A stretch of DNA of 64,000 nucleotides from Patescibacteria group bacterium (GCA_041662585.1 JBAZSG010000001.1:130381-194380), one strand, 5' to 3'; positions 11,346 to 48,948 are shown, counted from the stretch's first letter. Translations and numbers: made by a program. Notes: generated from the letters alone by a model not told the origin.

Positions 11346-11691
11346 AAATTTAAATTGTTAATGTTCTTTTTATTTTTATTTTTGCTTCTACTATCCCGCG
11401 AACGGGATCCCGCTATGCGGGACTTAGCAGTACAAGGTAAGTGGTGTCCAGCTAAAAATGAGTAAGACATACATTGTTTGTTGCATTTTTTTGTTTTTAT
11501 TTTTGTTTATAGCTCAATCCCCCCAATTGAGCTTTTTTATATTCAATTGTCTAAACGGTCCAAAATAATAGACCAAAGAGAAATAGGGTTAAAACTGCCC
11601 AATTCTCATGACTTTCCACCTGAGAGTTATGTCGATAACCCACCAAATGAAAAGATTTTATTTCTTTCATGGTTGTTATTGTTATTTTAAA

Positions 11692-39845: not shown

Positions 39846-40402
39846 TGAAAAGTGAAAAAATAATTGCCATCATTACTGGACCATCTGCAGTTGGTAAAAC
39901 TACTATTGCCAAAGAAGTTTTGCGTCGTTTAAAAAGCTTTAAAGCTTCTACCACTTATACTACTCGTCCTAAAAGAGACAAAGATACGGAAGATAAAATA
40001 ATGTATTATGTGTCTGAAACAGAATTTCGTAGTATGATAGATGATGACCAGTTTATTGAATGGGCTCAGGTACATGACAATTTTTATGGAACAAGTAAAA
40101 AAGCTTTAGAAGAAACTCTAAAAACCCACAATGTATTGATGAATATTGATGTTCAGGGCGCCAAAATTATCAAAAAAAAATTTGCCAAACATATATCTAT
40201 TTTTATACTTCCTGAACATATAGAAGATATAGCCAGCCGAATCCAACAAAGAGACATGACCAAGATTATGAAAAATCTACGAATAGAAAATGCCAAATTA
40301 GAAATGTCTCAGGCTGATCATTTTGATTATAAAATCGTAAACTACAATAACAAAATAGAGCTGGCTATAGAAAAAATAGTAAAAATATTAGCCAAATACT
40401 AA
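39845..40402 (+). CDS. gmk: guanylate kinase
   Basis: GPSAVGKTT P-loop, TTRPKRDKDTE...Y.VSETEF GMP-binding region; 185 aa. Confidence 0.7.
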   Translation: MKSEKIIAIITGPSAVGKTTIAKEVLRRLKSFKASTTYTTRPKRDKDTEDKIMYYVSETEFRSMIDDDQFIEWAQVHDNFYGTSKKALEETLKTHNVLMNIDVQGAKIIKKKFAKHISIFILPEHIEDIASRIQQRDMTKIMKNLRIENAKLEMSQADHFDYKIVNYNNKIELAIEKIVKILAKY

Positions 40403-40534
40403 ATATTTATAATATTTGTAAGTAAATAAGCCTTTATAGCCAAAACAAGCCTACACCTATTATATTGACAAAATAGCCAAAATCGGCTAGAATAGATACG
40501 TCATTATTTTACTGATGGCTTTTTTTATCCTCCT

Positions 40535-40996
40535 TTGGGTGATTTAGCCACATTAATAATAAGAGATTCAATAAACAATAATCATACAATTATGTCTGAA
40601 GACAAAACAACCAGCAAAAAAGAAGAACCTCTAGCTACTGAAAAAACAGTAAAACCTACTGAAAATAAGAAAAATACTACAAGTAATACTGAGCTCAAAC
40701 CTGGTATGACTGTTCGTGTTCACGAAACAATCAGAGAAAAAAATGCCAAGGGTGAAGAAAAAGAAAGAGTTCAAATTTTTGAAGGCATCATCTTGGCCAA
40801 AAAGCATAGATCAGAAATAGGCGCTACTATTACTGTCCGAAAACTATCTGATGGAATTGGTGTTGAAAAAATATTCCCAATCCATTCACCACTTATTGTA
40901 AAAATAGTTCCTGTAAAACAAGCCGTTGTAAAACGTGCCAAACTTGCCTATCTTAGAGATTACAAGAAAAAACTTAAAGAAACCAAAATTTCCTAA
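40535..40996 (+). CDS. rplS: ribosomal protein L19 with N-terminal low-complexity extension (true start possibly ATG at 40591)
   Basis: GMTVRVHETIREKNAKGEEKERVQIFEGIIL...LIVKI typical of bL19. Confidence 0.85.
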   Translation: MGDLATLIIRDSINNNHTIMSEDKTTSKKEEPLATEKTVKPTENKKNTTSNTELKPGMTVRVHETIREKNAKGEEKERVQIFEGIILAKKHRSEIGATITVRKLSDGIGVEKIFPIHSPLIVKIVPVKQAVVKRAKLAYLRDYKKKLKETKIS

Positions 40997-41005
40997 AACT
41001 CCTTG

Positions 41006-41095
41006 GCGGGCGTGGTGAAATTGGTAGACACGCAAGGTTGAGGGCCTTGTCCTAAACACTTTGGGGTGGAGGTTCAAATCCTCTCGCCCGCACCA
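41006..41095 (+). tRNA. tRNA-Leu (anticodon GAG), long variable arm
   Basis: Acceptor GCGGGCG/CGCCCGC, anticodon loop TTGAGGG, long extra arm, CCA encoded. Confidence 0.7.
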
Positions 41096-41139
41096 AAAAT
41101 GGTTTCCCGCGAAGCGGGACCACGCCAATTATTAAATAA

Positions 41140-41399: not shown

Positions 41400-41483
41400 A
41401 AAAAACCGTCTTGCCTAGTAAGGCTGTTTTTTATTTGACAAATATAGATAATTTGTTAATATAAATAGCACGTTGACAATCAA

Positions 41484-41662
41484 ATATTTATCAAGAGTAC
41501 TATCTGCCAAGGGACTGGCCCGATGATAGTCAGCAACCGACTAATAAATAGCCTCGGTGCTAAATCCAGCCCAAGCGGGGAAGATAACACACTGAAATAG
41601 TTCTTGTCCAAGGACTTTTTTTAATTTAAATCGACTAATCTTCCCGAACAGATTAGTTTTTT
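41484..41662 (+). promoter_or_regulatory. S-box (SAM-I) riboswitch-like aptamer plus terminator/attenuator hairpin
   Basis: ATCAAGAG...CCAAGGGACTGGCCCGATGA...GCAACC...GGTGCTAAATCCAGC...GATAA matches the conserved S-box core and P1 closure; hairpin ACTAATCT-TCCCGAAC-AGATTAGT + T6 at 41634-41662. Confidence 0.6.
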
Positions 41663-41729
41663 AATTGTTCATTACAATCTTGCAAAAGATAGGCCCAAAC
41701 CCTAAGCAACAAAACACAAGAGGTGAAAA

Positions 41730-41837
41730 ATGAATTACCGAACAAAAACTTGCCCACACTGTCATTTCAAAATTTACCTTTGGTTTATCAAGCTGTGGGG
41801 CACATGTGCTTTGTGCAATAAAAGAATAAAAGCTTGA
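41730..41837 (+). CDS. 35-aa Cys-rich micro-ORF (zinc-ribbon-like) downstream of the S-box element
   Basis: MNYRTKTCPHCHFKIYLWFIKLWGTCALCNKRIKA; SD AGAGGTG 5 nt upstream; strong terminator follows. Replaces the antisense track ORF 41661..41843. Confidence 0.4.
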   Translation: MNYRTKTCPHCHFKIYLWFIKLWGTCALCNKRIKA

Positions 41838-41855
41838 TGACAATTTTATTCTTGG

Positions 41856-41895
41856 TCGGCTGACAATTTTTTGTCAGCCGATTTTTTATTTTTTA
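41856..41895 (+). terminator. strong intrinsic terminator
   Basis: TCGGCTGACAA-TTTTTT-GTCAGCCGA followed by TTTTTTATTTTTT. Confidence 0.75.
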
Positions 41896-42035
41896 AAAAA
41901 TTATCCACAAAAATAAAAAATTTAACAAAAACTATTCTCTTGTTTTAAAAAATGTGGTATAATAAAGATTGTTAGAAATATATATTTTTTATTTAAAATA
42001 AATTTCTAAATAAAATAAACTTTAATTTATTTCTT

Positions 42036-42296
42036 ATGAGCTTTGGAAATTTTTTTGCCGGAATATTAATAGCTGCTGTTGGTTATCTACTAATTTGGAA
42101 ATCAGAATGGTTATTAAATAATTTTGGTCGCATTGGTTGGGCAGAAAAACATTTGGGTAGCGAAGGTGGTAGTAGATTAATGTATAAATTAATTGGAACA
42201 ATCATAATAATAGCCGGCTTTTTGAAAGCTACAAATCTAAGTGAAACTTTCATAAAATGGGTTGCTAGTGCTATTTTTGGGGCTAAAATACAATAA
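42036..42296 (+). CDS. 2-TM small membrane protein
   Basis: 86 aa, two hydrophobic helices. Confidence 0.4.
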   Translation: MSFGNFFAGILIAAVGYLLIWKSEWLLNNFGRIGWAEKHLGSEGGSRLMYKLIGTIIIIAGFLKATNLSETFIKWVASAIFGAKIQ

Positions 42297-42352
42297 AAAT
42301 AAAAGTCAAAATATTTGACCTAAAATCTAAAACAAGGAAGGAGGTGGAAAAA

Positions 42353-42472
42353 GTGAAAAAGAAAACTACAAAGAAAAAAGCTACTAAGAAAACTGCTAAA
42401 AAGAAAGTAGCTAAGAAAACTGCTAAAAAGAAACCTGCTAAAAGAAAAGCAGTTCGCAGAAAGAAAAAATAA
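42353..42472 (+). CDS. 39-aa lysine/alanine-rich histone-H1-like basic peptide (GTG start)
   Basis: VKKKTTKKKATKKTAKKKVAKKTAKKKPAKRKAVRRKKK with perfect SD AGGAGGTG 6 nt upstream; followed by a GC hairpin + T tract. Replaces the antisense track ORF 42283..42483. Confidence 0.45.
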   Translation: MKKKTTKKKATKKTAKKKVAKKTAKKKPAKRKAVRRKKK

Positions 42473-45228: not shown

Positions 45229-45350
45229 AATTCTCGCGACGACCTACTCTCGCAGCCCTAATGGGCTACTACCATCGGCGCTGAGCTTCTTAACTGCTGA
45301 GTTCGGAATGGGATCAGGTGTTACAAACTCGCTGGTGCCACGAGAATAAA
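45229..45350 (-). rRNA. rrf: 5S ribosomal RNA
   Basis: Reverse complement reads ...GGCACCAGCGAGTTTGTAACACCTGATCCCATTCCGAACTCAGCAGTTAAGAAGCTCAGCGCCGATGGTAGTAGCCCATTAGGGCTGCGAGAGTAGG... with 5S helix I closure. Confidence 0.85.
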
Positions 45351-45597
45351 ACCTTCTTCTTTATCTAATTTATTACACAAGTATCGTTTTATGCTACTTG
45401 TTGTTTGAATGAAGTAAGAAAAAATATTACTCCTAAAAATACAATCAGTATTAGAAAGATCAAAATTACTTTGATCATTCCAGTGTGTTTATCAATGTTC
45501 ATGAGCTTATAAAAATATCACTTATAAGACTCCATTCTCGCCAAAGCGAGATCCACTTATTACTTTTTTGTAATCAGTGGAAAAACTTCCAAAATTT

Positions 45598-48708
<3,111 letters not shown>

Positions 48709-48948
48709 ATCAAAAATTCTGAAAACTTTTAATGGATTTAATTTTGGATATAATTTTTTTTATATCTATACGAGATATTTTTATATAAAGATGCTCATAA
48801 ACATTGTTGATATTTATGATTTGTATTTTATTCAATTATCAAGGTTCATATTGCTTAACAAGCAATAAGTAGCTTTTTAAAAAAGTCGCGTAAGCCTACT
48901 TATTTAAAAAACTACTTGCTACTCATTAATTTTTAGAGGTCTCAAAAA

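Follow-up and report, generated by a model that had tools for sequence, protein, structure and literature searches.

A putative SAM-responsive cassette of Patescibacteria in which a SAM-I aptamer and two successive terminator-like hairpins precede a gene for a predicted zinc-ribbon micro-protein

The DNA analyzed here is a 64,000-nucleotide (nt) stretch from a Patescibacteria group bacterium (GCA_041662585.1, JBAZSG010000001.1:130381-194380; hereafter, the window, to which all coordinates refer unless a contig is named), and the subject of this work is a compact unit on its plus strand in which an aptamer of the SAM-I (S-box) type, specific for S-adenosylmethionine (SAM), is followed by an open reading frame (ORF) of only 35 codons. 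The unit occupies the slot between the tRNA-Val(TAC) gene and a gene for an 86-amino-acid (aa) protein with two transmembrane (TM) segments. It starts with a sigma-70-type promoter (41435-41462; -35 TTGACA, 16-nt spacer, extended -10 TG-n-TAATAT; 10 of the 12 consensus positions matched, with the TG present) that lies just past the tRNA-Val(TAC) terminator. There follow the aptamer (41485-41590), two hairpins each with a U-tract, denoted T1 (41599-41622) and T2 (41634-41662), the Shine-Dalgarno sequence AAGAGGTG (41718-41725), located 4 nt upstream of the ATG, and the micro-ORF itself (41730-41837), which encodes MNYRTKTCPHCHFKIYLWFIKLWGTCALCNKRIKA, a zinc-ribbon-like protein with four cysteines in a CxxC...CxxC arrangement that has homologs in other cassettes. 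The unit is closed by a strong intrinsic terminator (41854-41893; 13-bp stem at 41854-41883 and a T-run; -21.4 kcal/mol), beyond which the 86-aa protein gene (42036-42296, plus strand) is the next gene. A first-pass annotation of the window had already described S-box blocks at 41484-41590, an 8-bp hairpin with a T-run at 41634-41662, the micro-ORF with its good Shine-Dalgarno sequence and a very strong terminator ahead of the 86-aa gene, and had pointed out that the next cargo is neither metK nor another methionine gene; all these features were recovered in our analysis, which adds to them the extended -10 promoter, T1 and a potential antiterminator formed by GGGGAAGAT and ATCTTCCC.

By its covariance-model match, the aptamer belongs to the SAM-I family. 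Rfam cmscan aligned it to RF00162 (SAM) over the full length of the model (1-108 of 108) with a score of 55.1 bits, compared to the gathering score of 44.4 (E = 5.8e-10 for the 64-kb window searched against 4227 families and 6.4e-12 locally), and RF00162 was the sole riboswitch match in the whole window; this is the check that the first-pass annotation had proposed for its S-box call. The upper-case consensus blocks, which comprise the conserved core of the SAM pocket, are all aligned, namely AUCAAGAG, AGGGAcuGGCCC-AUGA (AGGGA..GGCCC..AUGA), GCAACC, GGUGC-AA-UCC and AGAUAA, and the two strands of P1 are TTATC (41488-41492) and GATAA (41583-41587). From this match, we infer that the RNA binds SAM.

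Related units exist in other genomes. The alignment of the 86-aa protein family was scanned against one genome per GTDB species, which gave 293 matching stretches, and the best 80 loci were kept; among these 80, a regular-expression search combined with tblastn detected a SAM-I core together with a homolog of the micro-ORF in L004 (Komeilibacteria RIFOXYD1_FULL_37_29) and L006 (SO_2016_GW1_35). With the 35-aa sequence as query, HMMER retrieved one true homolog from among 1.84 billion representative proteins, the 54-aa protein P0041 (MNSDDRFETIACPHCRQSIYVWFVKTNGRCPACQK...), the two other matches being false positives among repeat proteins. The only contig that encodes P0041, L086, contains a SAM-I aptamer directly upstream of its gene (RF00162, 55.9 bits), which was noticed only after the protein match; the layout of promoter, T1, T2, Shine-Dalgarno sequence and terminator is the same as in the window, and the flanking genes are unrelated. 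Four more such units (L093, L095, L096 and L106) were found on contigs that encode homologs of the 86-aa protein. We use the term cassette for the entire arrangement of a promoter, a SAM-I aptamer, two hairpin-plus-U-tract elements, a Shine-Dalgarno sequence, a zinc-ribbon ORF of 35-58 aa and a strong terminator. There are at least eight cassettes, one in the window and the others on seven Patescibacteria (Komeilibacteria-like) contigs, each with a zinc-ribbon ORF behind its aptamer; the micro-ORF is thus conserved jointly with the riboswitch in seven further genomes, which is what the homology and synteny search suggested by the first-pass annotation was meant to reveal. The aptamers of seven cassettes (window, L004, L006, L086, L093, L095 and L106) pass the RF00162 gathering score; the L096 aptamer was missed by RF00162 because of an insertion of about 110 nt in P3 and was found only by our own model, R1 (73.4 bits).

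A pattern scan of metagenomes contributed a sole new locus, L083 (Ga0210057_1003987, minus strand), with a closely related SAM-I aptamer at 11499-11608 that likewise passes the gathering score (RF00162, 45.2 bits). Here, the ~500 nt downstream of the aptamer contain a terminator/antiterminator, then another strong terminator (CCUCCC...GGGAGG plus U6) and a Cys-free 54-aa ORF (MATWSDREFRARQ...) that is unrelated to the micro-ORF and is annotated as a protein in public data; the next gene, RNase-Y-like, has its own promoter. This locus is another combination of a SAM-I aptamer with a tiny ORF, with a different cargo. A scan of viral contigs yielded no copy of the cassette.

The nine aptamers (eight cassettes and L083) were aligned to R1, and the pseudoknot was added manually. 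Standard base pairs fill 94.7% of the pair cells, and 11 of the 34 aptamer pairs show changes on both sides (two in P2, seven in P3 and two in the pseudoknot between the P2 loop and J3/4), whereas P1, P2b and P4 are invariant. The four pairs of the pseudoknot are maintained in 100% of the aptamers, with compensatory replacements of C-G by U-A in L093 and L095 and of G-C by A-U in L106. The observed percentage paired, number of double-sided changes and covariation score were matched in 0 of 500 shuffles each; the number of further pair types was unremarkable (160 of 500 shuffles), and sliding the 3' partner by 1-3 columns, as a control, brought pairing down to 24-48%. An alignment fitted to a model favors structure, yet the pseudoknot, which lies outside the model, covaries; with 7-9 sequences, the covariation statistics given here and below are indicative only.

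Downstream of the aptamer, the first-pass annotation recognized a single attenuator hairpin. This hairpin, T2 (ACTAATCT/AGATTAGT, 8 bp, with a U-run), is present as claimed but it is the second of two successive elements, the first being T1 (AGTTCTT-GTCC-AAGGACT, 7 bp), a weak hairpin (-4.3 kcal/mol) with a U-run of its own. The order aptamer, T1, T2 is kept in all eight leaders (L106 judged by eye). Across the cassettes, the T1 stem has 6-7 bp (-3 to -6 kcal/mol) and is followed by a U6-7 run, and T2, at -8 to -16 kcal/mol and also with a U-run, has an invariant 5' arm, CUAAUCUU. Pair counts over seven cassettes give 91.5% pairing with three double-sided changes for T1 and 98.2% paired cells for T2, and RNAalifold predicted both helices independently from the seven-sequence alignment.

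The formation of T2 can be countered by an alternative pairing. The switching strand GGGGAAGAT (41577-41585), made up of the 3' side of P4, J4/1 and the three bases with which the P1 3' strand begins, can pair with ATCTTCCC (41638-41645), located within the 5' arm and loop of T2; the resulting 8-bp antiterminator (-13.5 kcal/mol) belongs to the minimum-free-energy structure of the window transcript when this is cut off at the T2 loop. In the seven cassettes compared, the purine strand GGGGAAGAU can base-pair with the AUCUUYCC segment of the T2 5' arm and loop, so that the duplex comprises 8-9 bp with -6.7 to -13.5 kcal/mol, and the pairing is kept in 96.4% of the cells. In silico, T2 and the antiterminator are mutually exclusive. 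Because the antiterminator excludes P1/P4 as well as T2, which is the classical S-box logic, SAM should terminate transcription; we accordingly infer an OFF polarity via transcription termination, with T2 as the candidate SAM-dependent terminator. T1 is transcribed before the T2 antiterminator can form and would therefore be a pause site or leaky terminator, unless it is regulated separately; control of T1 by SAM is possible as well. The T1 5' arm could pair instead with the same GGGGAAGA strand, more stably (-7.4 to -9.2 kcal/mol) than within T1, and has a second alternative partner in the J1/2 sequence CAAGAG. A T1 antiterminator built from the P1 3' strand alone, in the classical register, was rejected after a manual check showed that the pairing is not conserved.

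Codon comparisons show that the micro-ORF evolves under purifying selection at the protein level. The eight cassette ORFs encode proteins of 35-58 aa (that of L106 starts with GTG), every homolog is preceded by a Shine-Dalgarno sequence (AAGGAG, AGGAGG or GAGGTG) 5-9 nt before the start codon, and only the annotated frame is open. The pattern T-x2-C-x2-C-x3-I-Y-x2-F and two further cysteines are invariant in the eight homologs; the core conserved around the aromatic residues reads T-x2-C-x2-C-x3-IY-x-(W/L/R)-F-(I/V), and the second Cys pair is CxxC except in L006 and L106, which have CPxxDC. With nucleotide identity between the cassette ORFs at 47-88%, the Cys codons alternate synonymously between TGC and TGT, and in a 22-codon core of seven ORFs the synonymous divergence (pS) is 0.4-1.2, that is, near saturation, compared to 0.06-0.5 for the nonsynonymous divergence (pN); in the least diverged pair, L093 and L096, pN/pS is 0.11. 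The spacer between T2 and the Shine-Dalgarno sequence (42-85 nt; identity 0.40-0.74) is less conserved than the ORF, and the least conserved segment altogether, in six of the seven pairs compared.

The low conservation of this spacer could be taken to indicate that the micro-ORF is expressed independently, from a promoter of its own that AT-rich sequence could hide if weak, and that riboswitch and ORF are merely neighbors that travel together. We consider this very unlikely: no promoter-like site was detected on the plus strand between T2 and the ORF (41662-41730) in the window, leader and ORF occur together in all eight cases, including one in a different genomic context, and a micro-ORF lacking the leader was not encountered in the more than 80 loci examined. 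The promoter upstream of the aptamer is itself conserved, TTGACA..TGnTAA(T/C)AT preceding all seven cassette aptamers compared and, as judged by eye, that of L106 as well. Between the -10 element and P1, near the expected 5' end of the transcript, there is a near-palindromic box, GTTGACAAT (RTTGACAAT; 41472-41480, plus strand), that is present in six of the seven leaders compared (window, L004, L086, L093, L095 and L096) and may represent an operator, another -35 element or an element of the RNA.

At the distal end, equivalent strong terminators with lineage-specific sequences (-16 to -36 kcal/mol) close the ORF in seven cassettes and, as judged by eye, in L106. The 86-aa protein gene has its own extended -10 promoter (AAAACTATTCT...TGTGGTATAAT; 41953-41963, plus strand), which is kept whatever the upstream slot holds: the cassette, nothing, an amine-oxidase-like gene or a TauE/TSUP permease gene. 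Because of this promoter, present in every arrangement of the slot, the 86-aa gene is a separate unit and the cassette is monocistronic. The possibility that the 86-aa gene is the real cargo was rejected given the intervening terminator and promoter and, further, the presence of the cassette in only a few of the 293 Patescibacteria loci of this family (80 kept). An antisense mode of action was also rejected, there being no opposite-strand gene between 41400 and 42600. No canonical SAM gene and no other Met/Cys/SAM-regulon cargo was found downstream, where the zinc-ribbon micro-ORF is the sole cargo, and a search for the MetK motif throughout the window found none.

We interpret these observations, with a probability of roughly 75%, as pointing to a self-contained, monocistronic, SAM-OFF transcriptional cassette with a dedicated micro-protein cargo, as opposed to a relic. 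The proposal of the first-pass annotation that a SAM aptamer and a zinc-ribbon micropeptide form an undescribed regulon member is supported by the seven further genomes and by the purifying selection on the ORF. The same annotation offered the alternative that the riboswitch is a decaying relic; the ORF would then be a chance reading frame. The cargo indeed lacks a link to known Met/SAM genes, and the cassette is missing from the closest relatives found; but in all cassettes except that of L096, and in L083, the aptamer exceeds the RF00162 gathering threshold, its pseudoknot and helices covary with compensatory changes, and T1, T2 and the antiterminator are conserved. Furthermore, the ORF stays in frame with invariant cysteines and synonymous codon turnover, and the divergence of the ORFs, given above, implies that the related contigs are not assembly copies of one another. 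We therefore regard decay as extremely unlikely.

The mechanism that we propose for the cassette is as follows. Transcription would start from the sigma-70-type promoter, and the first ~110 nt of the transcript would fold as the SAM-I aptamer. With SAM bound, P1 and P4 would hold the purine strand (41577-41585), allowing both T1 and T2 to form, and transcription would stop before the ORF. When SAM is absent, the freed strand would pair with AUCUUCCC, which belongs to the T2 5' arm and loop, and block the terminator, perhaps after an earlier pairing with the similar UCUUGUCC of T1; RNA polymerase would then read on for ~70 nt to the strong Shine-Dalgarno sequence and the 35-codon gene, and the strong terminator would end the unit. 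Under this scheme, the micro-protein would be made only under SAM scarcity, and it is probably an unrecognized part of the response to SAM shortage.

Several observations weigh against this reading or limit its reach. All eight cassettes were assembled from metagenomes and belong to one clade, and six of them share one chromosomal slot and are, therefore, not fully independent. Variation in the antiterminator is one-sided throughout the seven sequences and compatible with wobble pairing, with no compensatory changes, because the 5' strand is fixed by the aptamer. The rescue pairings of T1 are only suggestive (shuffle p = 0.03-0.5), and leader L093 weakens the J1/2 alternative; if T1 terminated efficiently and constitutively, little transcript would arrive at T2 and the ORF. 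A few ORF pairs have pN/pS of 0.8-0.9, although these pairs are saturated and their ratios uninformative. Finally, the protein has no significant family or fold match beyond the generic zinc ribbon, and its function is, therefore, a guess.

The prominence of T1 also raises the possibility that the functional product of the locus is mainly an RNA, either a stand-alone, trans-acting RNA or a SAM sponge akin to SreA/SreB of Listeria, that ends at T1 or T2, with the ORF being secondary or the RNA having a dual function. A canonical hairpin with a U-tract right after the aptamer in every cassette would give an RNA of ~150 nt regardless of T2, and in L083, two terminators come between the aptamer and any ORF, the ORF there being an unrelated one. 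However, the constraint on the micro-ORF at the protein level and its conserved Shine-Dalgarno sequence argue for a translated product, the conserved logic of T2 and the antiterminator would be pointless if nothing downstream mattered, and no conserved target-pairing region was seen, although none was specifically looked for. Given that a role in trans is compatible with one in cis, an exclusively or mainly RNA-based function appears improbable to us.

The product of the micro-ORF is, by its Cys pattern and model, a member of a new small four-Cys family and a predicted zinc ribbon. The AlphaFold2 model of the 35-aa protein has a mean pLDDT (predicted local distance difference test) of 83, and two Cys knuckles (CxxC or CxxxxC), with all four cysteines invariant in the eight homologs, assign it to the generic four-Cys zinc-ribbon class. 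Searches for families and folds (Pfam, NCBIfam, PADLOC, PDB and Foldseek) produced only sub-threshold similarity to generic zinc-ribbon, RING and treble-clef proteins: the best Pfam matches had E = 1e-4 to 1e-3, with all the scores shown for the window protein below the gathering scores, PRK05978 reached 13.3 bits in the window protein against a cut-off of 187 bits, the PDB sequence search gave E >= 0.006, Foldseek with the AlphaFold2 model against PDB gave E >= 0.68, and PADLOC had no match. Membership in the curated families considered (DUF983/PRK05978, YacG, HVO_2753, DZR, Zn_ribbon_*, Trm112) was rejected, all the matches being below the cut-offs. The best profile match is the N-terminal zinc ribbon of the PRK05978/DUF983 membrane proteins, which explains the label 'DUF983' given to P0041 by JGI; this label was rejected as well, given that the similarity is sub-threshold and the remainder of that family is missing. 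Four of the five cassette ORFs that were looked up (window, L004, L006 and L093) are absent from a collection of 15 billion proteins, the L093 ORF is not called as a gene, and the 57-aa protein of L006 has no word-sharing homolog in the protein collection; the cassette ORFs exemplify genes that are overlooked by annotation.

The aromatic patch IY-x-(W/L/R)-F-(I/V) is invariant among the homologs, which suggests that it serves as an interface for binding. Patescibacteria hosts of such a cassette are expected to depend on external methionine or SAM precursors, and our best guess is that the micro-protein binds a protein or nucleic-acid partner via the aromatic IY-x-WF-(I/V)-K face in a response to SAM/methionine starvation. 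In a bolder scenario, which we put forward tentatively and deem rather unlikely as a whole, the cassettes would represent a Patescibacteria-specific branch of the SAM regulon in which one aptamer hands its purine strand from T1 to T2, the sole output would be a SAM-starvation effector micro-protein acting on a component of the cell such as MetK, a methyltransferase, the ribosome or DNA replication/restriction, and the unit would move horizontally as a sensor-effector module.

Some mobility is, indeed, suggested by the distribution of the cassette, which is patchy. It is missing in the closest relatives as judged by the 86-aa protein (P0002, 85%; L003 and L005, 78-79%) and present in more distant ones (65-77%), whereas in L086 it occupies a different genomic site. 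What lies between tRNA-Val(TAC) and the 86-aa gene (41400-42035 in the window) varies among genomes: the slot is empty in L005 (by sequence) and L097 (judged from a gap of ~350 nt between called genes), holds an FAD amine-oxidase-like gene in L003 and a gene for a TauE/TSUP permease (sulfite/organosulfonate-type) in L087-L089; this permease gene of close relatives was checked for a SAM-I leader, and none was found. The micro-ORFs of L086 (968-1132) and L006 (3532-3705) have GC contents of 0.58 and 0.54, respectively, the leaders and the L006 flanks being, by eye, much more AT-rich, and these two ORFs show the lowest cross-lineage pS (0.38). Together, these features suggest that the cassette, or its coding part, has moved horizontally into a variable slot beside a tRNA cluster.

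As for the neighborhood, the 86-aa two-TM family has no Pfam domain and is widespread in Patescibacteria, to which all its homologs belong, the closest ones being labeled Candidatus Komeilibacteria, and this bears out the first-pass annotation, which had placed the window in Patescibacteria; the invariant positions of the family include G16, K22, W25, N29, G31, E37, G44-G45, R47, Y50-K51 and G54. Further downstream, there is an ORF of 42 aa (42344-42472, plus strand) that consists almost entirely of Lys, Ala and Thr (MEKVKKKTTKKKATKK...), has a very strong Shine-Dalgarno sequence, GGAAGGAGGTGG, and is called as a gene in public assemblies, relatives having genes of 47-85 aa at the same place; it probably encodes a small basic nucleic-acid-binding protein. 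The 5S and 23S rRNA genes are located at 45231-48709 (minus strand), the 23S gene being 3110 nt long, compared to a model of 2925 nt, and carrying several 57-58-nt insertions; a 16S rRNA is not among the genes reported for the window, and so the rRNA genes appear to be unlinked. The segment 43962-45139 contains a UbiA-family prenyltransferase gene (GC 0.46) and a Cys/His-rich ORF of 62 aa (GC 0.44), both well above the window average of 0.35, which makes horizontal acquisition of the two possible. Contig L001, from the same species, is 99.98% identical to the window from 41140 onward and diverges completely upstream of the tRNA-Ala gene (L001 1-1113 compared to window 40028-41139), where it has an MgtC-family gene; the difference reflects either a rearrangement between strains at the tRNA cluster or a chimeric assembly.

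For genes of unknown function, control by a riboswitch is one of the most reliable indications of what they do, and a micro-protein to which a SAM-I element is dedicated would matter when SAM is low. To our knowledge, regulation in Patescibacteria, which are ultrasmall and host-dependent, is almost unstudied, and a new family of small proteins with a clear condition of expression could offer an entry into their SAM/methionine homeostasis. The two terminators behind a single aptamer are of mechanistic interest, and the compact native cassette of promoter, riboswitch and terminator (~430 nt) might find use as a tool for ligand-responsive expression in Patescibacteria, for which the need for such tools has been stated (PMC11665869). 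Full-text literature searches, with incomplete coverage so that an earlier description may exist, found no riboswitch regulon in Patescibacteria or the candidate phyla radiation (CPR), no SAM riboswitch controlling a zinc-ribbon or other small protein, and nothing relevant on tandem terminators. The class of the riboswitch is known, whereas its cargo and the succession of two terminators after a single aptamer are new.

Among the known systems, the closest parallels to the leader are the S-box attenuators of Firmicutes (the yitJ, metI and metK leaders of Bacillus subtilis; RF00162), which share with it the P1-P4 four-way junction, the pseudoknot between the P2 loop and J3/4, the competition of the P1 3' strand, the antiterminator and the intrinsic terminator, and the expected OFF response to SAM. 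The cassette differs from these in its monocistronic cargo, a zinc-ribbon protein of 35-58 aa instead of a gene for Met/Cys/SAM biosynthesis or transport, in the two hairpin-plus-U-tract elements that follow one aptamer, and in its Patescibacteria host. In Listeria monocytogenes, the SAM riboswitches SreA and SreB also act in trans as small RNAs; the terminated leader of the SAM-I element described here could likewise be a separate short RNA, but in the cassette, unlike in SreA/SreB, there is a conserved coding cargo downstream. On the protein side, the micro-protein resembles one-domain prokaryotic zinc-finger micro-proteins (the Haloferax HVO_2753 family, YacG and the N-terminus of DUF983/PRK05978) in having Cys knuckles ~14 residues apart within fewer than 60 aa, with sub-threshold profile similarity to PRK05978 (best E = 1e-4; in the window protein, the one member for which the matched stretch was shown, the match covers the zinc-ribbon segment), HVO_2753 (E = 0.002) and YacG (E = 0.008-0.04). 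It differs from them in lacking the transmembrane helices of DUF983 and the C-terminal GyrB-binding part of YacG, and is set apart from the known zinc fingers by its own conserved core and its predicted control by a riboswitch.

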